The notes: generated from the letters alone by a model not told the origin. Counted from the first letter of the stretch, positions 9,711 through 61,310 are shown. The stretch is DNA of 64,000 nt from an uncultured Candidatus Saccharibacteria bacterium (GCA_964443675.1 CAYUDN010000002.1:2586-66585); one strand, 5' to 3'. Made by a program: numbers and translations.

Positions 9711-9870
9711 ATACCATCTCCAACTAAGGCTTCCGAGTATATAGGTGTCTATACTTTTTAGCGAAAAACAAGTCGGAACACGAATCATATAGATATATGA
9801 AGAGTGTGAGACGAGGTTTTGCAGCAAAAAGTATAACCACTTGTTCGGAATGGTTAGTTGGAGATGGTAT
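9711..9870. repeat. 160-bp element bounded by a 17-bp perfect inverted repeat (ATACCATCTCCAACTAA / TTAGTTGGAGATGGTAT), extendable to an interrupted 26-bp stem; candidate structured RNA or MITE
   Basis: The arms are at 9711-9727 and 9854-9870. The adjacent GGCTTCCGA / TCGGAATGG extends pairing. Internal complementary segments AACAAGTCGGAA and ACTTGTTCGGAA are present. The right arm overlaps the xth stop codon. Confidence 0.5.
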
Positions 9871-10649
9871 TATATCGCAAGTACAAGCTCTGTTGGTGCA
9901 TGATCACTCCCTTCAAAAGTATCGAGAATTGCTGCGTTGGTTTGTTTTTCTTGAAGCAGCCCACTAAGTGACTTACTCACAAAAATATAATCTATTCTCC
10001 ACCCAACATTCCTTTCTCTCGCTCGCGTCTTTTGGTCCCACCAACTATATCGCACCTCGGTAGGATGAAGTGTTCTAAAGGTATCAATAAAACCTTCTTG
10101 TATCACACGGTCAACCCAAGAACGCTCAACAGGAAGGAATCCTATATGTGTGCTATTTTCTTTTGGTCGCGCAAGGTCGATTTCGTTATGGGCAACATTA
10201 AGATCGCCACAAAAAATAACACGTGGATTTTTTTTCTCAAGACGCTTTACATAGACAAGAAACTCATCATAGTAAGCAAGTTTAAACTTAAAGTGCTCTT
10301 CATCACGACCACCGTTTGGGAAATATGCAGTAACAAAAATAAAGTCATCAAAGTAAAGCGTGAGACATCTTCCTTCTGTGTCAAAAGCTTCTTTTCCTAA
10401 ACCGTACACAACCTTCTTCGGCTCCTTCTTTGTATACACAGCAACACCAGAATACCCTTTGCGTTCTTTTGCACTATCGAAGTACGCATGATACGAGTAA
10501 GGGGAGGTAAGCGCCTCGTCCAGTTGCTCCTTGTTTGCTTTGGTTTCTTGAATAGCAACAATATCTGCATTAAGCGCAAGAAGTCTATCAAATGCACCTT
10601 TTTTGTAACAAGCACGAATGCCGTTTACATTGTAAGAAAGAATTTTCAT
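9870..10649 (-). CDS. xth: Exodeoxyribonuclease III (AP endonuclease)
   Basis: MKILSYNVNGIRA...IQETK...FCGDLNVAH...SDHAP: full set of Xth/APE1 family motifs. Confidence 0.9.
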   Translation of the reverse strand: MKILSYNVNGIRACYKKGAFDRLLALNADIVAIQETKANKEQLDEALTSPYSYHAYFDSAKERKGYSGVAVYTKKEPKKVVYGLGKEAFDTEGRCLTLYFDDFIFVTAYFPNGGRDEEHFKFKLAYYDEFLVYVKRLEKKNPRVIFCGDLNVAHNEIDLARPKENSTHIGFLPVERSWVDRVIQEGFIDTFRTLHPTEVRYSWWDQKTRARERNVGWRIDYIFVSKSLSGLLQEKQTNAAILDTFEGSDHAPTELVLAI

Positions 10650-10778: not shown

Positions 10779-11201
10779 TCATAAGGTGTACACAATATCG
10801 TACAAGGAACCGTTCTTTGTAAAGACAAGATAATGTTCACCTTCCTTAACTTCAAGGATATGTGCAACAACTCCTGTCTTAAGATCCTTGATAGGATGTG
10901 GAATGCGTCCGTTAACAAAAAACCCAGGGTATTGATCGTACCACAAGGAGTACGCTACTGGATTTTCTAGAGGTTCACCCTTCTCACAGATCTTTGTCAC
11001 TGTAACCGTTCCACAAACAAGTTTGAGGGCACGAGGAACAAAGGGACTTACAATAGGGACCCTAACCACCTTAGAGTATGGTGATTCTTTCTCTATACTC
11101 GGCCGAACAAAGTCGCCTACCTGTCCTGCAAAACCAGATGAAAAATCAGACTCCGGCGGAAGTGTAACAGGAAGTCCGCCACCCTCATTTACTTTTGCCA
11201 T
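10779..11201 (-). CDS. Hypothetical protein (140 aa)
   Basis: ORF starting MAKVNEGGG. No recognised family. Confidence 0.4.
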   Translation of the reverse strand: MAKVNEGGGLPVTLPPESDFSSGFAGQVGDFVRPSIEKESPYSKVVRVPIVSPFVPRALKLVCGTVTVTKICEKGEPLENPVAYSLWYDQYPGFFVNGRIPHPIKDLKTGVVAHILEVKEGEHYLVFTKNGSLYDIVYTL

Positions 11202-11277
11202 AGCAAAACTCCTCAAAAGACCAAACAAGATCAACACTACAGTACAACTATCACTTTGTCAACAAACTTCTTAATTC

Positions 11278-13200
11278 TTATCGTTCATTAGTAATTGAAG
11301 TTCCGGTCTCTACATAAATTCTCTTCTTCGCTTCCTTCTCTCCACAAGAAAGATGAACATCAAGTGTGCTCCCTACCTCAACGGTCTTTTGTCCTGATGT
11401 CATCCAATCACCTCCTTCATGCTCTTTCGTGAGAGTGGTAAGGGATTCTTTTATTGTTCTTGATTTAACACCATCCTCTATATCAACTTTTTGTTCCTCA
11501 AAAATCGCATTGAGATCGTTCACCGCCTCACGCTGCACCGCCGAACATCCTGACTTTGAACACACAGGAGAAGCAAAAAGGGTACACGTTGAGGTAGGGA
11601 AGTGTATGGACCAGTTGATTACTGTCTTTTGGTTAGGAAGAAGTGTTCTTGGAGAAATAAGAAGGAACACCTCTGGTGAAGGAAGATTCGTTGCATGAAA
11701 ATATTTAACCACAGGAGAACTTACCCTGTCGCTTCGTAAACAAGTAGCACTATAATTTCCTGTTATAGAAAGAGGCACTCGAACAATTTCTTTGTATACA
11801 CCAGTAGCAACTGCTACACCGGTATCTGTGTTTACCACTTTATATGCATCCGAACCAGAACACTCAAGCTCCATCGCGCCTTGTGTCGAATAATATTCAC
11901 CAACAAGATGAACATGTTTAACTTCTGGCATTACACACACCTGAAGACTCTCACTCCAAACACCTGGTGCGCACGTTGTTCCAAAAGTTCCTTCAGCGAT
12001 TTTTCCGGTAGAATCATATAACTCAACCACATAAGGTTCTTCTCTGTACCGAAGCTCTTTCTGTAAACCACCAGACTGTCCTGAGCCAAGAACAACAACC
12101 ATATCGTTAAGAGGCATACGCGCTTCCACTTGTCCTACACTTTGTTTTGCTGACCAAGCAATATGTATCGGGCAAGACTTTTTATCTCCCTCAATACTAC
12201 AAGATCGACTAAGCACCACATTACCAAAAAGTTGACGACATTTACTTCCATCCCAGATAGGCTTATCACCCTGACAAAGAGCTTTAACGGTTGATGTTGC
12301 AGTAATATCTGGCTCAATACATCTATTAAGAGAATAATTCCATACCGCAGTTGGAGAAGTGCAGTACACAGGGTAACAATTAGTAACATCAACGGCGTCA
12401 CACACAGTAGCACTAACAGAAGAACTATTTGATTTATTTGAAGTAAAAGTATTTACAGAAGAGAGAAAGTCGTTAGTTACCACAACCTGCTCACCACCAA
12501 CAGAATAAACACCTTCTCCTTCTTTGGTACGTAACGGTGTCTGGGCAAACCAGGCAGCAAAACGAGATTCTTTGCTTTTTTTGTTTTTAAAAAGACGCAA
12601 TAGTTCTCTTTCTACTTCTTGTGGAGAAGTTGTCTTGGTAATGTTAGCAACTACAAACATGAGCGACCCTTTTGTGTACCCTTTTGGGGTTACAAAGAAG
12701 ACCGATGAGTACAACTCTTCGCTTGTTGTATTCTTAAAAACAATCTTACAGTCGAAACCATCCTCAACCTCTTCATAAAAAGGGACATCCACTCTCTGTG
12801 TACAAGTAAGATCTCCTTTTGTTGCTTCACTAAAAGGGTACTCCCTAAGAAGGATCTGGTAATTTGCAAGGTTTTGTAACACCTCTGCTTTGGTGGCACT
12901 TTGTGTCACTTCGGCAAAAATAATTCTATGTGCTGGGTTTTGGTTTTCGCACACATATGCAACAGACTCTTCAGTATCACCTTTTTCTCCACAATACACT
13001 CGAACGGTGTTGTCGAACTCTTTTGTAAGCCCCAACGAATAGTGATAGTGAGAAAGTAAAAATCGATCAATTGTGCTACTTGTAGCTTCCAAAGAAGTGG
13101 TAATCATATCTTCCTTTGTTATTACAAAAGAAGATATGTACAACAAGAAAGCTACGAGTACTATACCGCCAAGAGAAAACCACACGATCAACTTGTTCAT
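11278..13200 (-). CDS. Membrane-anchored Cys-rich extracellular protein, hypothetical
   Basis: N-terminal TM anchor (LIVWFSLGGIVLVAFLLYISSFVI) followed by a ~600-aa domain with many Cys residues. Confidence 0.5.
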   Translation of the reverse strand: MNKLIVWFSLGGIVLVAFLLYISSFVITKEDMITTSLEATSSTIDRFLLSHYHYSLGLTKEFDNTVRVYCGEKGDTEESVAYVCENQNPAHRIIFAEVTQSATKAEVLQNLANYQILLREYPFSEATKGDLTCTQRVDVPFYEEVEDGFDCKIVFKNTTSEELYSSVFFVTPKGYTKGSLMFVVANITKTTSPQEVERELLRLFKNKKSKESRFAAWFAQTPLRTKEGEGVYSVGGEQVVVTNDFLSSVNTFTSNKSNSSSVSATVCDAVDVTNCYPVYCTSPTAVWNYSLNRCIEPDITATSTVKALCQGDKPIWDGSKCRQLFGNVVLSRSCSIEGDKKSCPIHIAWSAKQSVGQVEARMPLNDMVVVLGSGQSGGLQKELRYREEPYVVELYDSTGKIAEGTFGTTCAPGVWSESLQVCVMPEVKHVHLVGEYYSTQGAMELECSGSDAYKVVNTDTGVAVATGVYKEIVRVPLSITGNYSATCLRSDRVSSPVVKYFHATNLPSPEVFLLISPRTLLPNQKTVINWSIHFPTSTCTLFASPVCSKSGCSAVQREAVNDLNAIFEEQKVDIEDGVKSRTIKESLTTLTKEHEGGDWMTSGQKTVEVGSTLDVHLSCGEKEAKKRIYVETGTSITNER

Positions 13201-13272: not shown

Positions 13273-14226
13273 CTATTCTTCTTTTTTCTTACGATGAAAC
13301 TTCTCATACTGATCTCTTAAGAACTTATTCGTTACATTGGTATAAATTTGTGTTGTTGCGATAGACGCATGTCCAAGCATCATCTGCACGGTGCGGAGGT
13401 CAGCACCATTGTAAAGAAGGTCGGTTGCGAACGAGTGACGAATTACGTGCGGAGTACATTTCTTTGCAATACCAACACGTTCTGCATACTTCTCTACAGT
13501 ACGCTCAACACTGCGAGGAGTGAGACGTATTGACTCTTCTTTTTCAATACGAGCATGTGCACGAGGGGAATGATCCACAAACATCGCTTCATCAATATCA
13601 ACACGCTCTTTCAGGTATGCTTTTACTGTTGCAAGTGCACTGCCAGAAATAAACACTACGCGAATCTTCCCACCTTTTCCTCGAATAGAAATTTCACCAG
13701 AAGAAAGATCACAATCTCGATCAAGCGAACAAAGCTCCGAAACACGAAGCCCGGTAGAAAAGAGAAGTTCTAGCATCGCCTTATCTCGAAGTCCCGCAAT
13801 AGTACCCACATCTGGAGCAGAAAGAAGCGATAGAAGCTCTTTCTCAGAAATAAGATCGAGTTCTCTTTGGGAAGTTTTGGCGAGTTCGATCTTCTCTGGA
13901 TCATAGCCTTCCACTCCACGTTTTCGAATATATTTTAGAAAGGCACGAAGAGCGATAAGGTGGTAATTCTGTGTTTTTTTGTCGAGAGTTTCTTGTGCTT
14001 GACCTTTCTTCATCTCTCGTGCAGGGAAACGGTTAAGAAAGATACGATATTCACGCATCATTTGTTCAGTAATTGCGTGTGGTGTTACTACGCTATACTT
14101 CGTCTCTGCAAACTCAAGAAACCTTGTTAAGTAATGGTCGTAGTTACGTACCGTGAGCGCGCTTCTACCTTTTTCGATTTCGATATATTGTAAAAAATCT
14201 TGTTTAAGAGAAAAGAGGGAGGGCAT
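13273..14226 (-). CDS. xerD: Tyrosine site-specific recombinase, XerC/XerD family
   Basis: N-terminal SAM-like core-binding domain. Catalytic domain carries R...HxxR...Y motifs (LRVSELCSL, HVIRHSFATDLL, LGHASIATTQIYTNV). Confidence 0.85.
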   Translation of the reverse strand: MPSLFSLKQDFLQYIEIEKGRSALTVRNYDHYLTRFLEFAETKYSVVTPHAITEQMMREYRIFLNRFPAREMKKGQAQETLDKKTQNYHLIALRAFLKYIRKRGVEGYDPEKIELAKTSQRELDLISEKELLSLLSAPDVGTIAGLRDKAMLELLFSTGLRVSELCSLDRDCDLSSGEISIRGKGGKIRVVFISGSALATVKAYLKERVDIDEAMFVDHSPRAHARIEKEESIRLTPRSVERTVEKYAERVGIAKKCTPHVIRHSFATDLLYNGADLRTVQMMLGHASIATTQIYTNVTNKFLRDQYEKFHRKKKEE

Positions 14227-14296
14227 GGCTAAAGACTAAAATAAAAAAGATTTATCAATACAATCTAAGTATACAATTAAACTATATAAAAAAAGA

Positions 14297-14321
14297 AACC
14301 GAAGGCAAAGCCTTCGGTTTG
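14297..14321 (-). terminator. Hairpin AAACCGAAGGC-AAA-GCCTTCGGTTT with a T-run on the minus strand
   Basis: 11-bp GC-rich stem followed (on the minus strand) by CTTTTTTTATA. Sits after the GHKL ATPase gene. Confidence 0.65.
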
Positions 14322-14334
14322 TTACTCTTTCATG

Positions 14335-15993
14335 TTATCGCTTCATCAGCATCATCTTCACAAAGTCGTCAACTGCCAACTCTGCAAAAGCTTGTGCCGT
14401 CTCTTGTTGGTTGGGAGACATGAGCGCAACACGAAGAGCGGAAATGATAATCTTCTGATAGAGGTCTCGAACCTTTGCGTCAGAAGTGTCTACCATTTCC
14501 ACAAGAGGATGTGTTGGATTGATTTTCAAACACACCGATTCTGGGTTAAAGAACCAAAGCTTCGAACCAAGGTCATCAGACACCACGTGGAGACCAGAAG
14601 AATGTCCGCGAACAACTTTTCGCTCGCTACCTTTCCCAACCACAACAACGGGATGATGTGCCTTTTTCTCGTCTTTTGTTCCTGGTTCTGACTTCTTTGC
14701 AGCACTTTTACCCCTACGAATAGGAGTAACGTTTTTGCCAGTCATTCCAAAACCAGTAACATCGGTTCCTGGGAGATCTACGTGTCCGATGCCAACACTA
14801 CCGAACTTTGCGTTCACAAACAACGAAGCAAAAGGTGAGGTGTCTTTTTTCAGAAAGTCACCAATCTTAAGAAGAGCTTCTTCGACCAGAACCTGGTGAC
14901 GAACAGCTTCTCGTTTTGCCTTCTCATCGTTGTAGTACGTCGACCCGATGGTTTTGTACCAAGTGTCGACAGCACACGCAAGCGCAAGCTGAGCATCACC
15001 TTCTTCAAATCCTTTACGAGAGGACCGAAGGACGAGATTCTCTGCCAAGATTTCACCCTGGAACATTCCAGAAGCAATCGCCGTTTTTGTCTTCTCGTCG
15101 AGCATCCGATAAAACGATCCCTCGTTAAGCCGGTCAGCACGAAGAGGGAGACGGAACGGGTTCGACTGGGAACCGACACCGATACGAAGTGGCCCCTTAT
15201 GGCCTACAGGAGCAAGATAGAACATCACCTCGACTTTTCCTGCTGCTTCGTCGTCAAACACCCACACGGGGAGCTCTTTCCCTTCGAACTTTTTTGCTTT
15301 GAAGGTCTGTTCTGTGCGTTTTCCTTCTTCAATGACAACAACCTTTATGGAAGTTCCCAGAGAAGCGAGTTTTGCACCATACTCAATCTGCACTTCAGAC
15401 TTAAACTGATCGAAGTCAAAGCGACGCTTCACCTTGTCAGTAGTCAATCCGTACATCTTTACTTGAGTACGCCACCACACAGACTCACGGTAGGAGGTGC
15501 CTTTTTGTTTTGGGGTCCTTCCATCTTCGTGAGCAAAAGAAGGTTCTGGTTGGTTGTAAAAAGGCCACCCTTCTTCTTTTGTCTCAAACATCTTCTTACG
15601 ATCAAACTCATACGACTGGTACACATGCCCAGTCGAAGCAGTAATGATTTCAAAAGATGCATGAATAGAGAGCGGACTAACCATCCCAAGACCAAACCGT
15701 CCATAACGATCACCTCTACCGCCTTTTACCGACCTCCCAATCGACTCAAGCGCTTCGTGAACGATTTTGCTGGACATGCCAGCACCGTTGTCAAAAAACG
15801 ACACTTCACCGGAGTCAAGGTCAACAATCAGCAAAATACTTGTTGCACCTCCTGACTCAAGATCAACGGCGTTTTGCAACAACTCCTTGTACACCGGTAC
15901 CGCTGTCGGGTACACCTCAAGTGCTCGTTCCAACAATCCTCCACGATGACCCTTTGCAAAGATCACCTTCTTCCCAGACTTTTCAGCCACCAT
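14335..15993 (-). CDS. Bergerat-fold (GHKL / HATPase_c-type, MORC/sacsin-like) ATPase, 552 aa
   Basis: N-box ELLQNAVD, G1 box DNGAGM, G2 box GRFGLG. SD AAGAGGAG precedes the ATG. Only a 12-nt gap separates it from the upstream gene. Confidence 0.7.
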   Translation of the reverse strand: MVAEKSGKKVIFAKGHRGGLLERALEVYPTAVPVYKELLQNAVDLESGGATSILLIVDLDSGEVSFFDNGAGMSSKIVHEALESIGRSVKGGRGDRYGRFGLGMVSPLSIHASFEIITASTGHVYQSYEFDRKKMFETKEEGWPFYNQPEPSFAHEDGRTPKQKGTSYRESVWWRTQVKMYGLTTDKVKRRFDFDQFKSEVQIEYGAKLASLGTSIKVVVIEEGKRTEQTFKAKKFEGKELPVWVFDDEAAGKVEVMFYLAPVGHKGPLRIGVGSQSNPFRLPLRADRLNEGSFYRMLDEKTKTAIASGMFQGEILAENLVLRSSRKGFEEGDAQLALACAVDTWYKTIGSTYYNDEKAKREAVRHQVLVEEALLKIGDFLKKDTSPFASLFVNAKFGSVGIGHVDLPGTDVTGFGMTGKNVTPIRRGKSAAKKSEPGTKDEKKAHHPVVVVGKGSERKVVRGHSSGLHVVSDDLGSKLWFFNPESVCLKINPTHPLVEMVDTSDAKVRDLYQKIIISALRVALMSPNQQETAQAFAELAVDDFVKMMLMKR

Positions 15994-16005
15994 TACTAAC
16001 TCCTC

Positions 16006-16776
16006 TTAGTTAAGTTCTCGATAGGCACGTTCACTGCACAACCTTGCAAGAAGGTTCTTCAAGTCAAAGATACTCTTTTGTCCTGCTACTTCACGAAGAA
16101 ACCTTCTATCCTCTTCTGTTGTTGAAGCATCACAGTAGAACTGTGCAAAGTCAGTCAAATTTGAAACCAAAGAAGCAAACCTTTCTGCTCTTTTTCTTGC
16201 CTCTTCTTGAGTAACACTTTTCTCAGGAACCTCTGTGTTTGTAACACTAACAGTTTCTGGTTCAGGTTGTTGTACTGCTAGAGAGTCTTGAAGATACCTC
16301 TCCACAACACCTCTAAGCTCAAACAAAGAGTCTTTCTTCTTCTTTATCATGTTCCGAACACTATCCGGAACAGTATCAACGATAAGCTTGAGTTCTTCTC
16401 TATGTCTATCAGGAAGGAAACGGACACCGCGAACATGGAGCAAAAAGCTTTCTCGTACGGTTGCTGTATCAACGAAAAACTCAAGCCCTTTACCAGAAAC
16501 AGCAAAGAGTTGGAGGAGTTCCATTGAAACTTCTTCTTTTGCAACCACTCCAAAAGGAACAGGAATACCACAGAAGTCAAGAAAGATCGCAATCCTCAAA
16601 AGAGTCGACATTACTGCCGTCTCTTCTTTTTCAATGATCTTAACAAGACGGTATCTATGAATACCTACAGCCTTAGCGAACAAAAGAAGTTGGTCTGGTG
16701 TAAGTGCTTTTTGTAGCAAAAACAACCCTTCAAAAATTGACGTCTCAATGGACGTCTCTTGGCGTGCGTTTGTCAC
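16006..16776 (-). CDS. Hypothetical protein (256 aa) co-transcribed with the GHKL ATPase
   Basis: GTG start preceded by AAGGAG with a 7-nt spacer. No recognisable family. Confidence 0.5.
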   Translation of the reverse strand: MTNARQETSIETSIFEGLFLLQKALTPDQLLLFAKAVGIHRYRLVKIIEKEETAVMSTLLRIAIFLDFCGIPVPFGVVAKEEVSMELLQLFAVSGKGLEFFVDTATVRESFLLHVRGVRFLPDRHREELKLIVDTVPDSVRNMIKKKKDSLFELRGVVERYLQDSLAVQQPEPETVSVTNTEVPEKSVTQEEARKRAERFASLVSNLTDFAQFYCDASTTEEDRRFLREVAGQKSIFDLKNLLARLCSERAYRELN

Positions 16777-16848
16777 AATAAATCTCCTTGTAAAAGAACT
16801 CTTTCTTACCCTAACGCAACCCTACCACAAATAAACAAAAAGTCAAAC

Positions 16849-16873
16849 AAACCGTCCTTGTTGAGGACGGTTT
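16849..16873 (-). terminator. Hairpin AAACCGTCC-TTGTTGA-GGACGGTTT
   Basis: 9-bp stem. On the minus strand it is followed by a T-rich tract. Separates the HTH gene from the downstream pair. Confidence 0.55.
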
Positions 16874-16883
16874 AGTATAACTA

Positions 16884-17294
16884 TTATTTTCTTTTTACTT
16901 TCTCCTTTTGATGAAGAAGGTGGTTCCAGTCTTCGTTAGGAAATTGCCTTTTCATAAGAAGAACCCATCGTTCAAAGGAATGCTTAGACCCTTCCTCTGA
17001 AGACACTTCGCCATCTTCGCTTCTGTGAAGCTTCTTTTGTGCAATACACACAAGTGCTTGTAGGTCTTCTTTGGTAATTTCCTTTCTCGAAAGAGTATGG
17101 TTAAACAAAAGAACTTTAATTGCCTCATCTCCAAATACATCAAGAAGACAGTACAAAGCTTGCGTTGAGGCCTTATGTCCAGCAACATCTGATTCGTTAT
17201 GACTCACACTAGAACCAGTGCAACCAAGAAGAGCAGACAGTTCTCGAACTGTAAGACCTAACCTGTGCCTTCTGATAGCTTTAAAGGTACCCAT
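16884..17294 (-). CDS. XRE-family helix-turn-helix transcriptional regulator
   Basis: N-terminal MGTFKAIRRHRLGLTVRELSALLGCTGSSVSHNE (Cro/C1-type HTH). GGAG SD 5 nt upstream of the ATG at 17294. Confidence 0.6.
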   Translation of the reverse strand: MGTFKAIRRHRLGLTVRELSALLGCTGSSVSHNESDVAGHKASTQALYCLLDVFGDEAIKVLLFNHTLSRKEITKEDLQALVCIAQKKLHRSEDGEVSSEEGSKHSFERWVLLMKRQFPNEDWNHLLHQKEKVKRK

Positions 17295-17550
17295 AACTTC
17301 TCCTTTGTATTCAAAAAAACACCAAAGAGAGTGCAAGAGATATACTACACCAAACACTCTCCTTCTCAAAACAAAAAGATATTACTTCCTGAAAGAAAGT
17401 AAACATCGCTCAAGATACCTAATAATACACAATGAAAAAGAGTAACGTATAGTTATTTTTTAAGCTGTATACCAATCCGTGGAACGGTTTACAAAACTTT
17501 ACCAGTGTGTTAGTGTAAAAAGTAAGTGTTCTTAACTACGGAGATAGACC

Positions 17551-18690
17551 ATGTCGAGTGACAAACCTTTTGCAAAGAAGGCGGAACAGTGTTTCAAAAA
17601 AATCCTTAGCGTTCGCAGTCTTTATAACGCTGATGTTATTTACAGAATGGTTAATACTGGTGACGTTGAATGGAAAGACCTTTCTTTTGGAGAAAAAGAA
17701 CTTGAACAGAAAGTTCTTAGTATCTACCTAGCTGAAGCAGAAAAGTGCTTCGAAAAACTTAAGACGGGTGTTACCATCTTTCCTGCCACCGAGATCCAAA
17801 AACTCATCGGAAAGGGTGCAATTTCTTGGGCCATGTTGTCGTTTTCACAGGAAGAACTCGCACATGAACAACAGTCTGTTCATGTAAGAAGAGCGGAGCG
17901 TTTCTTTGCGAAGCTACAACAACGAAAGTCTGTTCAAGAGCATATCAACCTTCTTCGTGGAATGATTAAGGAGCAGGTCATAACATGGCCAATGCTCTCT
18001 TTCACAGAAAAAGACTTCCTAAAGGAGGAAAGGGCTGCTCACCTTGAACTGATTGTTCCTGTCTATAACGATGCAAAAAGTAACGGGTACGAAACCCTTA
18101 AGCATTACACAACAATGCTCAAGGTCAGGAACCTTGTTGATGGCGGAGTCCTTAATTGGGGAGATTTGCCGTTTTCCAAGAAAGACTTCGAGGCTGTTTT
18201 CCAAGCAAAAACAAACAAGAAACCTTCCCGTGTGGGGAGCTCTCTTGTAACACAAATCACTCGAGCGGAACCGTTTAGGGCGAAGGAGCTTGAAAAACGT
18301 ATTTGTGGAATGGTCAATGAGGGGAAATTCGGCTGGGAGGACATTGACACCACAAAAGAGGCACTTAGCAAAGAGGTTTTGAAGAGGGCTGTCCACTATG
18401 CAACTCGTCACTTTGAGTCACTGAAAAGAACTCAGAGTCCGGAACGTCATCTGTTGGCAATCCGATCACTCTTTGATCATGACCTCGTAACATGGGGAGA
18501 CCTTCCTTTCACAGAAAAAGATCTCTACAAACAAGAACGGTGTGCCTACACCAGAATTGCAGAAGATCACTTTTCTGCCATGAAAAGTGGGGTTACTTCT
18601 TCACCTGAAAAGATCCTTAACCTGGTTCGCCAAGGTAAGGTAAGATGGTCCTGGCTTACTTTCAGTGAAGAAGACATGGCATCCGTTTAA
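17551..18690 (+). CDS. Protein composed of seven tandem ~55-aa repeats with a conserved Trp motif, hypothetical
   Basis: Recurrent [VI]xWxxL[SP]F[ST]x[KE][DE][LF] motif: [91 protein letters not shown]. Confidence 0.6.
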
Positions 18691-18848
18691 ACAGCAGCGA
18701 GTGCCTAGAAATGCCGGATTTCCTTTATTATAAAAGGATCTGGCATTTTTTATATAACACATATCAAAAATACTTTTGTACAAGAAAATACAAAAATAGG
18801 GTGAAAAAGAAGGTGGTGGTCCGGTCAAAATCATCAACCAAAAAGGGC

Positions 18849-18877
18849 TTGCTTTTTTCAAAAAAGTATGATAGAAT
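18849..18877 (+). promoter_or_regulatory. Sigma70-type promoter TTGCTT-17-TAGAAT with TG extended -10, upstream of rpsO
   Basis: TTGCTT at 18849-18854, TGATAGAAT at 18869-18877. Confidence 0.55.
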
Positions 18878-18899
18878 ATACCCCATAGTTATTAATAGT

Positions 18900-29819: not shown

Positions 29820-30251
29820 TTATCCTTTCCTCTTCTTCCACCACACCTTCATAAGAAGGTAACATGATGCAGGAAGATCAAAGATGAGAAACCATGCAAA
29901 AAACAAAAGGAACATTACAGACAAAAACATATACATCCTTCTAACAAAAAAACTTTTTATCGATGGCTGGGTATCCTTGATACTCTCAGCAATCACTAGA
30001 ATAATGCTGGAGAAAAACCCTTCTGGTACTTGCACCTTTAGGTCAGTATGTAGCACTTCTCCAATAATCCAGTGACGAAAGAAGAGTGAAAATACCCCAA
30101 GAGATACCACAAGCAACGTCACAGTGATGTGGTTTTCTATCGAAAAAAACGGGTGCAACTTTTCAAGCTGAGTAAGAACAGCTCTGTATAGCAACAAACT
30201 CACCATACACAAGAACAACACCGCAAGAATGTTTTTCGTGGTACGCCACAT
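29820..30251 (-). CDS. Small integral membrane protein (about 4 TM), hypothetical
   Basis: Hydrophobic segments separated by short loops; lies downstream of the lipoprotein gene on the same strand. Confidence 0.4.
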   Translation of the reverse strand: MWRTTKNILAVLFLCMVSLLLYRAVLTQLEKLHPFFSIENHITVTLLVVSLGVFSLFFRHWIIGEVLHTDLKVQVPEGFFSSIILVIAESIKDTQPSIKSFFVRRMYMFLSVMFLLFFAWFLIFDLPASCYLLMKVWWKKRKG

Positions 30252-30363
30252 ATCGTATCCTCCAAACAGAAGTTCAACCTTTCACACTCTATACCAGAGT
30301 ATGGCAGAAGTCAAAACAAACATCGCCCCACCGAAGTGGAGCGATATTGTCCGGAAAGAGTAC

Positions 30364-31542
30364 TTACATCTTCCTCTTTCCGAACTCATAAAGAGCAACC
30401 AGGTTCACGTGCGTCTTATCCGCATAGAACCTGATGTTCTTTGGGTATGCACGGGTCATCCCTCCCCGCATACCAGTATTAACCCATCTGGCAGTTGCTT
30501 TGTATGCATGCCCTGGGGAGTGGTGGGCAGCGGCAACAAACATCACCATTTCGTCCTGGAAGCTGTTGTGCTTCGCAAGAAGAGTGGTAACACCTTTGTC
30601 ACTCAAGAACCCTGTCATTCGCAGAATGTTGTGCACCGCAAAGTACACCGCAGCAACATGATGCTGATCTCCTTCGAGATACACCACCGAGTCCGGGATC
30701 TTAACACCACCATCACGAACGAATCCGTTCACAATAGAGGCACCTTCTGTTGCTTCTTCATCTTTCCGAAGAGCAAAGGAGGTGAACTGATAGAACCCAA
30801 GCGACAGCATATCGTCATGCTTGGCAGGGGTATGCATCAGGTACGAAACCCCAGCATTCCGAAGCAGCATGTCCAGGTAAGGAACATTGAGTCGTGCGTC
30901 ACCGGGCAAAAGCTCTGTCATGCCGTACGCAATGAAGTCCTTCCCTGTAAGGTTCCTCACAATCTGCTTTGCGAGTTCGCAGCGGCGTGCATCAACGGGG
31001 TGCTTCTTATTCTTTGCGTACCGTGCACAGAGCTTCTGCCAATCAATGGACTTCTTAGCATCCTTTACAACACTGTCGGTAACAAAGATAAATTCAGAAA
31101 GAGTGCTCTTCTTCCTGTCACTTTGCATGTACCGGTCAAGGACGTAAGAAGTCTTCCCAAGAGTCGAATCCGACACGTTCTTGCGAAGAACCTTGTCGTT
31201 CCACATTGATGCCATGACAGCATCAAAGGACACATCAACAAAGCGGGGAAGCACAGCTCCTTGTTTGGGAAGTCCGAGGTGTGTGGCATAGAAGTCACTA
31301 ACCTTGGAACGAACCTGAAGGAGTGGCGCAAGGTCGATATGCACCTTTTGATTCTTTGTGGCCTCCTTCACTCCGTTGGCGGCAGCTGAAGCTGCCTCAC
31401 GCATCTCGTCTCGTGTTTGAGGACGAGAAGCGGTCGACGAAGGTATGGATGGCGACGAAACAGTAGAACCTTCTTGTTTTGAGCAACCAACCAAGGTCAC
31501 CACAACAAGAAGAAGGTGCAGGGCGTAATTGCGAATGTTCAC
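30364..31542 (-). CDS. Lipoprotein, hypothetical (GC-elevated gene)
   Basis: GTG start with GAGGAG SD gives MNIRNYALHLLLVVVTLVGCSKQ (signal peptide plus lipobox LVGC). The track ORF starts 27 codons upstream without a signal peptide. GC about 48-50% by eye. Confidence 0.5.
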   Translation of the reverse strand: MNIRNYALHLLLVVVTLVGCSKQEGSTVSSPSIPSSTASRPQTRDEMREAASAAANGVKEATKNQKVHIDLAPLLQVRSKVSDFYATHLGLPKQGAVLPRFVDVSFDAVMASMWNDKVLRKNVSDSTLGKTSYVLDRYMQSDRKKSTLSEFIFVTDSVVKDAKKSIDWQKLCARYAKNKKHPVDARRCELAKQIVRNLTGKDFIAYGMTELLPGDARLNVPYLDMLLRNAGVSYLMHTPAKHDDMLSLGFYQFTSFALRKDEEATEGASIVNGFVRDGGVKIPDSVVYLEGDQHHVAAVYFAVHNILRMTGFLSDKGVTTLLAKHNSFQDEMVMFVAAAHHSPGHAYKATARWVNTGMRGGMTRAYPKNIRFYADKTHVNLVALYEFGKRKM

Positions 31543-31644
31543 AACATCTCCTCTATCTAAAAGAATGGGTAAAAACAAACAACAATCAATATCTATTATA
31601 TCACAAAACTTGATAAAAGTCAATGACTGTGCTACACTCCTTAC

Positions 31645-32439
31645 ATGTATTCTCCTCGTCCAAAAAAGTCCCTTGGTCAGAACTTCTTAACCTCAATTCC
31701 TGCACGCAAAAAAATGATAGAAGCGGGGGAAGTTACTTCGCGTGACACAGTGCTTGAAATTGGTCCAGGAAAGGGATTTCTTACTGAGGAGATTCTTCTT
31801 ACTGGTGCAAATGTGGTAGCACTTGAAAAGGATCAGGAACTTATTCCTTTTCTTCAAGAAAAGTTTAAGAGTAGCAGTAACTTCTCTTTACTTCATGGCG
31901 ACGTGCTTACTTTTGACCCAAACAATGAAAGGCAGCTCACTTCGACCTACAAAGTTGTTGCTAATATTCCTTACTACATAACAGGTGCAATCCTCTCTCA
32001 TTTTCTTGCACACAAACACAAACCAACATGTATGGCAGTGCTTGTACAAAAAGAAGTGGCAGAACGTATCTGCGCTCACAACAACAAAGAGTCCCTTCTT
32101 TCTCTTTCTGTCAAAGTGTACGGTACCCCAAAACTTTTTTATAAAGTGAACAAAGGAAGCTTCAATCCTATTCCAAAAGTCGACTCAGCAATTCTCCAGA
32201 TTAAAGACATTTCTTCGAACAACTTCCACAACAACACTCATGAAGCAACATTTTTCCGTCTTATCCATGCAGCATTCGCACACAAACGCAAGTTCGCGCT
32301 TTCTAATATTGAAGTAGTATTTAAGGGACGAGATATTCGCACACTATTCCAACAACTATCTCTTAGCGAGAAAGTTCGTGCTGAAGATGTTACACTCCCT
32401 GTATGGCTTTCTCTTTCTTTGAAGCTTTCTACACAATAG
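31645..32439 (+). CDS. rsmA: 16S rRNA (adenine1518/1519-N6)-dimethyltransferase
   Basis: SLGQNFL, EIGPGKGFLT (SAM-binding), VVANIPYYIT. Confidence 0.9.
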   Translation: MYSPRPKKSLGQNFLTSIPARKKMIEAGEVTSRDTVLEIGPGKGFLTEEILLTGANVVALEKDQELIPFLQEKFKSSSNFSLLHGDVLTFDPNNERQLTSTYKVVANIPYYITGAILSHFLAHKHKPTCMAVLVQKEVAERICAHNNKESLLSLSVKVYGTPKLFYKVNKGSFNPIPKVDSAILQIKDISSNNFHNNTHEATFFRLIHAAFAHKRKFALSNIEVVFKGRDIRTLFQQLSLSEKVRAEDVTLPVWLSLSLKLSTQ

Positions 32440-59465: not shown

Positions 59466-59498
59466 TACAAAGAGTGGAAACCTGTAAAGAAAAGAGTA

Positions 59499-59526
59499 TT
59501 GACAAATCTATATTTTTTGATATAAT
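59499..59526 (+). promoter_or_regulatory. Consensus sigma70 promoter TTGACA-16-TATAAT upstream of a GC-rich secreted-protein gene
   Basis: TTGACA at 59499-59504, TATAAT at 59521-59526. Confidence 0.55.
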
Positions 59527-59581
59527 AGTAGTTAGAGCTGACACATGGGTGTTAGCAAAAACTTTACAAAGGAACATCACC

Positions 59582-60325
59582 ATGTTTGCAACCCGTTTGC
59601 TTTTCACCACTCTCCTTTCTTTGGTTTCTGTGGCGACTTTCGCTCAGAATTTCCAATCTGTGCCGAGCGGGAATGGGGGGATTTACTACTGGCAGACGTC
59701 GCCTGGACCTTCGGTTTCCCAAGTGACACTGATTCGAGAGATTCAACCACAACTCCCGTTCTTGTACCAGCGACAAATGCCTCAACTTTGGGGACAGGGT
59801 GGTATCCAACCTGGATGCCAACTGGTACGAGCGGATCTTTGGAGTCGTATTGCTAATGGTGCCAAGGAAGCATTCTTGGATTCATTGGTGGGAGGGCTTA
59901 CAGGTGCGGTCTCTGATCGCATCAACCGCACAGGTGGACACTGGACCAATATCGGTCTTCATTCTGGACTCGCGGTTGGATTCCTTCAAGGGTCCAGGGA
60001 GCAGTACACGGTGATTTGTCCTAAGGTTGACGACCAAAAACCTGTCATCGGTCAAGGTTCTTGTGTGGTTGGTGGAGAGAACATTGGTAACACCTCTGAG
60101 GAGACTTGTCTCCGTATCAGGAAGCGTTTGACCAAAAATTCCTCTCAGAAGACCTACGATGGTCCACCAAAGGTTGTGAACGATCACACTTGCGCGGTTC
60201 TCGACGAGAAACAGCGTGTCCTTGCTGACTTTCTCGACAAGAACCGCAACCCAAAAGGGATAATGGTTACTTCCGATGAGAGATGTAAAGAGGAGAGGGA
60301 AAACTTCTCCAACAGTTTTCGATAA
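59582..60325 (+). CDS. Secreted protein, GC-rich paralogue 1 (hypothetical)
   Basis: Signal peptide MFATRLLFTTLLSLVSVATFA. C-terminal CAVLDEKQRVLADFLDKNRNPKG...CKEERENF shared with the next gene. Atypical GC3-rich codon usage. Confidence 0.5.
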   Translation: MFATRLLFTTLLSLVSVATFAQNFQSVPSGNGGIYYWQTSPGPSVSQVTLIREIQPQLPFLYQRQMPQLWGQGGIQPGCQLVRADLWSRIANGAKEAFLDSLVGGLTGAVSDRINRTGGHWTNIGLHSGLAVGFLQGSREQYTVICPKVDDQKPVIGQGSCVVGGENIGNTSEETCLRIRKRLTKNSSQKTYDGPPKVVNDHTCAVLDEKQRVLADFLDKNRNPKGIMVTSDERCKEERENFSNSFR

Positions 60326-60343
60326 AACCTATCGACGACACCC

Positions 60344-60375
60344 AGACCCTGCCACAAAGCAGGGTCTTGACTTTT
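60344..60375 (+). terminator. Hairpin AGACCCTGC-CACAAA-GCAGGGTCT plus TTTTTT; overlaps the promoter of the next gene
   Basis: 9-bp stem and T-run. TTGACT...TATACT promoter-like elements immediately follow or overlap. Confidence 0.6.
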
Positions 60376-60469
60376 TTAATATTTCGTGTATACTTATATA
60401 TAAGTTTCCTAAAGTTTAATACTTAAGGAAAACGAAGTTCTCTATAACCGCTCAAAATCGGAGGAATCC

Positions 60470-61291
60470 ATGAGCATTTTCAAAACCCTGATTCTTGCTG
60501 CACTTGTTGCCGTTTCGGCAAACATCCACGCTAACGCCGTGGTTCCGCCTTTGGCAGCGGCAAGTGCTCCAACGCTTTCCGCTGCAGCAGAGGCTCGTGA
60601 CTCTGTCATGGAGGTTTGTCTCAAGATCAAAAAACTGCGCGATACCGCAAAAAGTGACAAGGTTGCGGTGGTCGACAAGGGGCCTCTTTTGCAAGAAGCA
60701 TTGGAATCCGAGCGCCGTCTTGGACTCTCTTGTTCTGGTAGCGGGAAAGCGGCAGCAAAACCACACCCTTCCTCGGACAACGCTGCGGTGCTTGCACAGC
60801 TTCGGTTGGACCTTCAGCAGGCTCGCGAAGCATTGGCTTTGAAGACGAAAACTGACGAGCAGGAGTCTCAAAAGGTCAAAGGGTTGGTTTCCGCGACCGG
60901 TGACAAACTGGTTGAGTGCGGGACCCAGTCGCGAATTGTGTATGTCGGCAACGACGGACAGATGTATGCGACCTGTAAAGGAACCGCAGACGAAATCTTT
61001 CGTGCCCCTCCTCCAGCACCGGTCCCAGCTCCGCACGTGGTCGTAGTTCAACCAGCGAACATCCACCAACTCGGTGGTGTTGCAGTGGTGTCACAAACGA
61101 CGCCTACTCCGACCATTCAACCACAACCCCTGAACTACCCTTGTAAGGTGGTTGATAAGAACAAGAAAGTTCTCGCTGATTTTCTTGACAAGAATGCCAA
61201 CCCATACGGTTTGGTGGCGAAGACAGACATTCAATGCAAGGAAGCGCGTGAACGCTTCATTCAGGAGAATCGTTACATTTTCCTGTATTAA
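60470..61291 (+). CDS. Secreted protein, GC-rich paralogue 2 (hypothetical)
   Basis: Signal peptide MSIFKTLILAALVAVSANIHA. Strong SD GGAGG. C-terminal CKVVDKNKKVLADFLDKNANPYG...CKEARERF paralogous to the preceding gene. Confidence 0.5.
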   Translation: MSIFKTLILAALVAVSANIHANAVVPPLAAASAPTLSAAAEARDSVMEVCLKIKKLRDTAKSDKVAVVDKGPLLQEALESERRLGLSCSGSGKAAAKPHPSSDNAAVLAQLRLDLQQAREALALKTKTDEQESQKVKGLVSATGDKLVECGTQSRIVYVGNDGQMYATCKGTADEIFRAPPPAPVPAPHVVVVQPANIHQLGGVAVVSQTTPTPTIQPQPLNYPCKVVDKNKKVLADFLDKNANPYGLVAKTDIQCKEARERFIQENRYIFLY

Positions 61292-61310
61292 ACCCCTTTG
61301 TTGGGGTGAA

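Follow-up and report, generated by a model that had tools for sequence, protein, structure and literature searches.

We analysed a 64,000-nucleotide stretch of DNA from an uncultured Candidatus Saccharibacteria bacterium (GCA_964443675.1 CAYUDN010000002.1:2586-66585), referred to as the window throughout. A preliminary description had drawn attention to four adjacent genes within it. In the order of transcription these code for an XRE-type helix-turn-helix (HTH) protein, a protein that we call the partner, a GHKL-type ATPase and a tyrosine recombinase (Table 1). The central result is that the partner and the ATPase form a two-gene operon, partner first, which on sequence evidence belongs to a sizeable undescribed family.

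A predicted partner-ATPase operon

Inspection of the window confirmed the gene positions of the preliminary description, the three ATPase motifs, the 12-nucleotide gap with its Shine-Dalgarno sequence and the GTG start of the partner gene behind AAGGAG. Through this short gap, partner and ATPase are predicted to be translationally coupled. The terminator past the ATPase gene was found by terminator scan and in the sequence itself, and it is predicted to close the operon and to set it apart from the recombinase gene, xer. Each unit had been described as carrying its own terminator. This holds for the XRE gene and for the ATPase, each of which ends in a strong hairpin and a T-run; downstream of the recombinase gene the terminator scan gave none.

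Conservation of the pair at unrelated loci

Fifteen independent loci were examined (the window, L002, L003/L004, L005-L010 and L095-L100). A homologue of the partner, 220-464 residues in length, stands directly upstream of the ATPase gene and in the same orientation at every one of them. At the other loci the two genes overlap or lie 10-40 nucleotides apart. A word-indexed search returned just 8 relatives of the ATPase and 2 of the partner. An exhaustive profile search with the ATPase resulted in at least 334 clusters (50% identity) at E<=1e-30, and the 150 clusters listed were near-full-length matches in a single stretch, ~485-630 residues long, save for three shorter fragments. All sampled members of the ATPase family were unnamed or annotated as "hypothetical protein". 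The literature searched held no description of the family, and beyond HATPase_c_3 there was no convincing match in PADLOC, the PDB or Pfam. The earlier suggestion of an undescribed two-gene unit that is conserved in unrelated contexts was thus upheld.

The genes around the pair are unrelated between lineages. They include rpsO/xer, S8-L6-L18-S5-SecY, ATP synthase, GroES/GroEL, DnaA/DnaN/HU, GyrA, ClpB and RpoD/DnaG. Judged by sequence, the pair is an accessory module that is found at differing places in many uncultured bacteria, and it represents a GHKL subfamily that is new, as is its obligate partner.

A third protein of ~85 residues is encoded at 8 of the 15 loci, the window not being among them. 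It carries the motif (S/T)(I/V)TFSL..W....PQxGQ....L....Y.RGWRA, is unannotated and gave no Pfam match. Its gene lies 5' of the partner gene in seven loci, usually overlapping it or separated by no more than ~30 nucleotides, and 3' of the ATPase gene in L097.

Some further observations were made at individual loci. Genes with a ParB_N domain lie 350-440 nucleotides past the ATPase gene in two loci that are otherwise different (L097:10144-10941 and L098:5689-6621). The L098 region also carries HU, DnaA, DnaN and DciA and is probably origin-proximal because of these genes. In L096, a 26-kb Joint Genome Institute (JGI) contig (Ga0071116_1001328), the three-gene version stands amid ~20 genes on the same strand that code for 47-458 residues, and these surrounding genes gave zero Pfam or PHROGs matches. 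This contig may be a mobile element or a virus of an uncultured host. A viral origin was considered and rejected, as the hits in IMG/VR were generic N-terminal GHKL domains and nothing else, and PHROGs gave nothing for the L096 context. A fold search of BFVD likewise led to GHKL proteins of a generic kind, among them rIIA, topoisomerases and Hsp90.

Active site, fold and C-terminal half of the ATPase

The ATPase carries the GHKL motifs ELLQNAVD (residues 37-44), DNGAGM (68-73) and GRFGLG (98-103). Pfam HATPase_c_3 matched residues 35-140 with 36.8 bits (gathering cut-off 25; E 4.9e-9). Residue conservation was then taken over 153 family members. The N-box residues E37, N41 and D44 are 99% conserved, and D68, G70 and G72 of the G1 box, K90, and G98, G101 and G103 of the G2 box are each conserved in at least 95%. 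The GHKL active site is accordingly judged to be intact. After the GHKL domain, R326 is invariant and W345, H404, R458, G467 and N492 are essentially so. We take R326 to recall the catalytic arginine of the Hsp90 middle domain.

A structural model was predicted with AlphaFold2 (AF2), and the regions distinguished along the protein are listed in Table 1. The mean predicted local distance difference test (pLDDT) of this model was 69. Foldseek against the PDB gave the N and M domains of Hsp90 (E 4e-12) and 43-kDa fragments of GyrB as best matches. With a model of this pLDDT, the alignments of nearly all top matches extended over ~370-460 columns at template modelling (TM) scores of 0.3-0.46. This suggests an architecture in which the predicted GHKL domain is followed by a transducer-like region. 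Sequence similarity covers the first ~100 GHKL residues (to ~120) and is about equal for MutL, HtpG and MORC2; beyond residue ~130, profile and hhalign comparisons gave no sequence-level match.

The conserved residues in the C-terminal part of the ATPase are H446, P448, R458, S465, G467, N492 and H495. No Pfam family matched the C-terminal domain, and a PDB profile search gave a marginal match only, to the non-catalytic tail of the phosphatidylserine synthase 3hsi (E 0.0097). A C-terminal HNH-like nuclease built on His and Asn residues was tested as a candidate and rejected, since H464 and H469 are not conserved across the family and Pfam gave nothing.

The partner protein

The AF2 model of the partner (pLDDT 83) is helical throughout and matched nothing among PDB folds better than E=0.48. 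Its N-terminal HTH-like domain is followed by a helical middle region, then by a disordered and variable linker (~170-187) and by conserved C-terminal helices. An extended profile of the partner, when compared with the PDB, found the XRE-type HTH protein 3op9 (E=0.0033) and, more weakly, 3bs3 (0.083), P22 C2 (0.28) and then CylR2. Among 17 members of the partner family, HTH_3 matched two (best 1.8e-4) and HTH_17 matched three; the window's own partner protein had no Pfam HTH match. Taken together, these matches suggest that the N-terminus is a HTH-like domain of the Cro/C1 (XRE) type. Kinship with the adjacent XRE protein was considered as well and rejected (hhalign probability 0.1%). The best-conserved stretch of the partner is formed by the C-terminal ~60 residues with the motif F(T/S)xEDRxxLRxxxGQxxIFxLKNxLxRLCSExA. 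Residues R224, R228, I236, F237, L246, C247 and A251 belong to this three-helix motif.

Table 1. Features of the locus, regions of the ATPase and genes of the ~85-residue protein. Nucleotide positions refer to the window unless a locus is named.
Feature	Position	Strand	Remarks
XRE-type HTH gene	16884-17294	-	136 aa counted from ATG with AAAGGAG Shine-Dalgarno sequence
XRE gene terminator	16874-16848	-	hairpin and T-run (terminator scan)
Shine-Dalgarno AAGGAG of partner	16789-16784	-	7 nt ahead of GTG
Partner gene	16006-16776	-	256 aa, GTG start
Intercistronic gap, 12 nt	15994-16005	-	GAGGAG inside; partner stop at 16008-16006
ATPase gene	14335-15993	-	552 aa, ATG at 15993
Terminator past ATPase gene	14320-14296	bidirectional	hairpin with 11-bp stem and T-run (terminator scan, sequence)
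Tyrosine recombinase gene (xer)	13273-14226	-	317 aa; Phage_integrase 1.6e-39
GHKL domain	ATPase residues ~20-150
Transducer-like alpha/beta region	ATPase residues up to ~330		contains R326
Long helix, ~50 residues	ATPase residues 333-382		AF2 model
Disordered basic Gly/Lys-rich linker	ATPase residues 397-466		AF2 model
C-terminal domain	ATPase residues 467-552		confidently predicted by AF2
~85-aa protein gene	L005:106-378
~85-aa protein gene	L007:1443-1721
~85-aa protein gene	L008:8939-9187
~85-aa protein gene	L009:65-334
~85-aa protein gene	L096:1809-2057
~85-aa protein gene	L097 ~9860-10130
~85-aa protein gene	L098:1671-1982
~85-aa protein gene	L100:4930-5211

Distribution and base composition

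The pair is absent from the same locus in the nearest relatives, L016 and L017. L017, in which xer lies 121 bp from rpsO, resembles the window no less than does L002, which has the pair (ComM 72% against 68% identity, NYN 84% against 85%). The ATPase tree has the form ((window, L002, P0003), (L003, L006)). Its two clades are 42-45% identical, as distant from each other as from clades of non-syntenic genomes. This conflicts with the flank proteins, which put L003 and L006 nearer to the window than L002. Identities amount to 42-65% for the ATPase and 39-45% for the partner, and to 68-90% for the housekeeping flanks.

Base composition was compared next. The ATPase gene has 47.5% GC and a GC content at third codon positions (GC3) of 0.45, against 39.3 +/- 4.4% and 0.30 +/- 0.08 for the genes of the window. 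The other three genes are typical of the window (partner 41.2%, XRE 40.4%, recombinase 42.1%). The GC-elevated module of the preliminary description is thereby reduced to the ATPase gene in the window, and the value of ~35% GC given there for nearby housekeeping genes has to be corrected, as the immediate neighbours measure 37-44%. Across all 15 loci the module is richer in GC than its flanks. In 14 of the 15 hosts the GC3 of the ATPase gene is above average for the locus, and in 10 it is the highest among long open reading frames (ORFs), irrespective of host GC (0.39-0.54). In L005 it reaches 0.71, against 0.36 +/- 0.05, beside ribosomal-protein genes. The elevation is less marked in the partner gene. 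Repeated transfer out of a GC-richer pool and GC-biased gene conversion are candidate causes. Together, these observations suggest that the pair behaves as if it were mobile.

An overlapping antisense gene was considered as a cause of the GC3 anomaly and rejected, because the in-phase ORF was no longer than in synonymous shuffles at any of the 15 loci. In the window, a 319-residue ORF runs antisense to the ATPase gene and in phase with it (14896-15855, plus strand). According to the synonymous-codon shuffles, it is open because the ATPase gene avoids the codons TTA, CTA and TCA.

The recombinase and the xer/rpsO junction

The recombinase aligned at full length with the XerC, XerD and XerA models at ~218-233 bits (XerC 233, XerD 233). 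The equivalog cut-offs of NCBIfam (220-335 bits) were not reached, which a divergent lineage would lead one to expect. The protein has a SAM-like N domain and a catalytic domain, and its translation shows the catalytic residues R, K, HxxR and H..Y. In its alignment and its domains it resembles the chromosome-dimer resolvases XerC, XerD and XerA. It is 80-85% identical in L002, L003 and L017, similar to other housekeeping flanks.

With the neighbouring NYN-domain protein as anchor (59-83% identity), 80 metagenome contigs with related loci were retrieved. The gene order ExoIII-xer-rpsO-NYN-...-ComM recurs throughout them, and across the lineage xer keeps its place beside rpsO. Both genes are present at 47 of the loci, and at 32 of these the xer-rpsO spacing is no more than 325 bp. 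Neither the ATPase nor the partner was found on any of the 80 contigs. The recombinase is thus assigned as the chromosomal Xer of the lineage, a syntenic housekeeping neighbour outside the module. Because the synteny exists without the pair, the 4.7-kb xer-rpsO interval of the window is best read as an insertion into an ancestral junction.

A role of the recombinase in this insertion had been proposed, with the pair as cargo of an integrative element and att-like repeats at its flanks. Xer is syntenic next to rpsO in genomes without the pair, 11 other loci hold the pair without any recombinase, and the repeat search found no direct (att-type) repeat pair bracketing 14227-18896. The integrative-element reading was rejected on the synteny without cargo and the missing flanking repeats. 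The junction was also considered as a defence hotspot; this was rejected, since its other inserts are ordinary genes or unknowns.

A conserved 15-nucleotide element, ATGTCGCACAATATT, was observed at the xer start codon or within ~160 nucleotides of it in ~35 related loci, such as L017 (9435-9449). Each locus has a single copy, in either orientation, and in some loci the element overlaps the xer start codon. A variant, GTCGTACAAT, lies between ATPase and xer in L002 and L006, and the window holds a degenerate remnant of ATGTCGCACAATATT at 14255-14275 that is seemingly half-deleted (ATTGTA^TAC). The element could be an Xer operator or a dif-like site.

Comparison with known GHKL systems

GHKL-plus-transducer ATPases, among them MutL, MORC, the topoisomerase B subunits and Hsp90, hold a central place among the machines that act on DNA and protein, and their prokaryotic offshoots have so far been tied to restriction-type systems through helicase or nuclease neighbours. 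The family described here could reveal a new use of the GHKL clamp, because it has a different obligate partner and no recognisable effector.

For the MORC and paraMORC families, which combine GHKL and S5 domains, Iyer, Abhiman and Aravind (2008, PMC2292703) predicted a role chiefly in restriction and defence. Our ATPase family is like paraMORC in that its ATP motifs are intact within a GHKL domain at the N-terminus, and also in its predicted transducer-like domain, its conserved family-specific C-terminal extension and its sporadic, mobile-looking distribution (PMC2292703). Of the known architectures the paraMORC concept comes closest, but the sequence cannot place the family there. The ATPase profile matched MORC2 over residues 20-129 (E 1.6e-6); this similarity does not reach past the first ~110 residues, and MutL and HtpG match just as well. 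In contrast to MORC and paraMORC, no superfamily II (SFII) helicase, nuclease or methylase gene neighbours the pair in the 15 loci, and the obligate partner is an HTH-containing all-alpha protein.

MutL was the best profile-to-PDB sequence match (E 3.4e-8), with an hhalign probability of 96.7% over the N-box and the G1 and G2 boxes, and it is comparable in overall length and in the logic of a dimeric GHKL clamp. However, the hhalign alignment with E. coli MutL spans residues 31-122 only, neither DNA_mis_repair nor MutL_C was found (Pfam E<=0.1), a MutS context is lacking, and the gene belongs to the accessory and not to the core complement. Hsp90 provided the top structural matches (N+M) and shares an invariant arginine after the GHKL domain. 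In contrast, TM-scores were only 0.3-0.4, no HSP90 Pfam match or signature of a middle or C-terminal domain was obtained, and the hhalign alignment with HtpG reaches only over residues ~23-117. NCBIfam scores stayed below cut-off for HtpG (18 bits against 371) and for PRK14083 "HSP90 family protein" (29 against 455), as did those for the sacsin ATP-binding domain (Pfam PF25794, 17.5 bits against 32.8; NCBIfam NF047352, 37.3 against 50). By its domain signatures, the ATPase is not a MutL, Hsp90, sacsin, topoisomerase VI-B or histidine kinase protein. The preliminary description had seen no histidine-kinase, MutL or gyrase context, and the ATPase is indeed a GHKL enzyme that belongs to none of these three families.

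With GHKL proteins of defence systems the ATPase shares the generic N-terminus only (TmtA 22.9 bits, BbrUII 18.3, REase_II 12.3, MzaB 11.4). Tiamat TmtA, MzaB, BbrUII/HgiDII and GHKL-Shedu (VcSduA/paraMORC3) follow the same concept of a GHKL ATPase that controls a conflict system, and a GHKL-fused Shedu nuclease protects against phage (PMC12137116). Unlike our ATPase, these proteins are much larger or bear a nuclease (PD-(D/E)xK in Shedu, PMC12137116), and the partner genes of their systems are absent here.

Proposed function and alternatives

Tentatively, and at somewhat less than even odds, we favour a complex that works as an HTH-guided, ATP-operated DNA clamp in genome conflict. Binding of ATP would cause the ATPase to dimerise via its GHKL domains, as in MutL, MORC, Hsp90 and GyrB. 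In that state the ATPase would work as a clamp operated by ATP, with the basic flexible linker and the C-terminal domain touching DNA. The partner would dock on it by its conserved C-terminal helices and supply the Cro/C1-type HTH for recognition of DNA or for sensing. Such a complex may restrain or sense foreign DNA, or serve a mobile element, rather than take part in core metabolism. Because no effector domain is recognisable, its output would perhaps be clamping, silencing or the recruitment of an unlinked factor. In favour of the proposal are the constancy of the pair across the 15 loci, the conserved active site, the HTH matches of the partner, the accessory and mobile-like behaviour of the pair and the precedent of MORC, paraMORC and the GHKL-fused Shedu nuclease.

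Several results weigh against this proposal. Neither ATPase nor partner revealed an effector domain, and no nuclease, helicase or methylase is fused to them or consistently adjacent. The PADLOC comparison gave no defence assignment: in PADLOC-DB v2 the best match of the ATPase was TmtA (22.9 bits, residues 36-107), the partner had none, and the weak matches to the GHKL N-terminus included no defence model with substantial coverage. The neighbours at the loci are housekeeping genes and not defence islands, and the other, smaller inserts at the xer/rpsO junction hold TrmB, homoserine O-succinyltransferase (HTS), MgsA, FKBP or unknowns. The non-housekeeping flank genes x295 and x_9026 diverge as strongly as the pair (40-53%), so that fast evolution is not specific to it. 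The AF2 model of the ATPase is of moderate confidence only, and we infer how partner and ATPase would contact each other and DNA. Finally, the DNA-maintenance neighbours (Xer, ParB_N twice, GyrA and DnaA/DnaN/HU) would fit a role in the nucleoid equally well. Since effector, defence island and PADLOC match are all missing and since the neighbours fit a nucleoid role, we hold the conflict reading with corresponding restraint.

The nucleoid role is the strongest competitor, albeit a doubtful one. Here, the pair would be a system for structuring DNA that varies between lineages: the HTH adaptor would load the GHKL clamp in order to compact or segregate the cell's own chromosome or to set its topology. 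Its neighbours speak for it: xer adjoins the pair in the window, L002, L003 and L006, ParB_N genes follow in L097 and L098, and DnaA/DnaN/HU (L098), GyrA (L100) and ScpA/ScpB with DnaG and RpoD (L010) are found at further loci. However, the adjacency to xer is one inherited event, ParB_N occurs in 2 of 15 loci only, and small genomes hold so many information-processing genes that chance alone would bring such neighbours about. The predicted succession of GHKL domain, transducer, long helix and basic linker resembles, by analogy, DNA compactors of the MORC type, and the two conserved ends of the partner with a flexible linker between them recall an adaptor. A maintenance factor would not be expected to be missing from L016 and L017 at the same locus and from all 80 NYN-anchored contigs, to show ATPase similarities incongruent with those of the flanks, or to keep a persistently foreign-looking GC3.

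Two further readings are less probable still. In the first, the genes would form a toxin-antitoxin-like or regulatory pair of the HipBA kind, in which an HTH repressor or antitoxin would neutralise and autoregulate a GHKL kinase or ATPase, or else an Hsp90-like chaperone with its co-chaperone. An XRE-type HTH-like protein encoded directly upstream of an enzyme gene, and translationally coupled to it, would suit the former. However, a partner of 220-464 residues with a conserved C-terminal domain of its own is far above the typical size of an antitoxin, and neither a kinase substrate domain nor a HisKA domain is present. The chaperone version draws on the Hsp90 fold matches, on the weak NCBIfam matches to "HSP90 family protein" and sacsin and on R326, which we presume to resemble the Hsp90 catalytic arginine. 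Against it, the alignment with HtpG ends after ~95 GHKL residues, and the sporadic distribution and the GC3 anomaly are unexpected for a chaperone.

The second, which we regard as similarly unlikely, is a narrower form of the conflict proposal. In this form the pair, with the ~85-residue protein as an optional component, would be the first example of a widespread effector-less system in which the HTH adaptor loads an ATP-operated, MORC-like clamp on foreign DNA and thereby silences or immobilises it. The system would parallel in prokaryotes the MORC silencing of eukaryotes and would circulate by frequent horizontal exchange, and this exchange would account for the enrichment of GC3 in the ATPase gene. 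Should the pair prove to serve defence or silencing, a further mechanism would become known from little-studied uncultured bacteria with small genomes, in which few defence systems have been recognised.

The weakest alternative, raised in its first form by the preliminary description, is that an integrative element carries the pair as cargo and has the neighbouring tyrosine recombinase as its integrase, or else that the pair was inserted at a dif site beside xer by an Xer-exploiting, integrative mobile element (IMEX)-like mechanism. It could appeal to the immediate adjacency of the insert to the recombinase gene, to ATGTCGCACAATATT in the xer 5' region of ~35 related loci and to a xer/rpsO junction that varies in a minority of genomes, but is highly improbable and was rejected, as the ExoIII-xer-rpsO-NYN order is ancestral and present without cargo, xer is as conserved as the housekeeping flanks, the pair occurs elsewhere without a recombinase, no direct repeats were found at the flanks of the insert, and ATGTCGCACAATATT is single beside xer, does not bracket the inserts and is half-deleted in the window.

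Further features of the neighbourhood

The product of the XRE gene scored 26.1 bits against Pfam HTH_31 (E 1.1e-5), slightly below the cut-off of 27. With tblastn, matches were obtained solely in the window and in the identical contig L001, and no counterpart was found at other loci. The gene had been described as the regulator of the module; it is of the XRE type, but is assigned as a neighbour specific to this genome and outside the module. Its vicinity to the pair, like that of the recombinase, can be coincidental.

Between the XRE gene and rpsO, the window codes for a 379-residue protein (17551-18690, plus strand) with ~7 repeats of ~50 residues, the motif (V/I)xW.(D/M)L(S/P)F(S/T)EK(D/E)(L/F) and a GC3 of 0.42. 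It matched no Pfam family and was found only in this genome, without a counterpart at other loci. On the other side of xer, two genes for 640 and 152 residues lie between xer and an ExoIII-type nuclease gene (10779-13200, minus strand). No Pfam match was obtained for either, and the syntenic relatives L002 and L003 lack counterparts of both; the region is a second variable spot of the same neighbourhood. The 640-residue protein has a hydrophobic N-terminal segment and many Cys residues. Further GC-rich patches, which gave no Pfam matches, were observed at 30200-31650 and 59470-61300. They have 48-53% GC, a GC3 of 0.47-0.52 and long ORFs on both strands.

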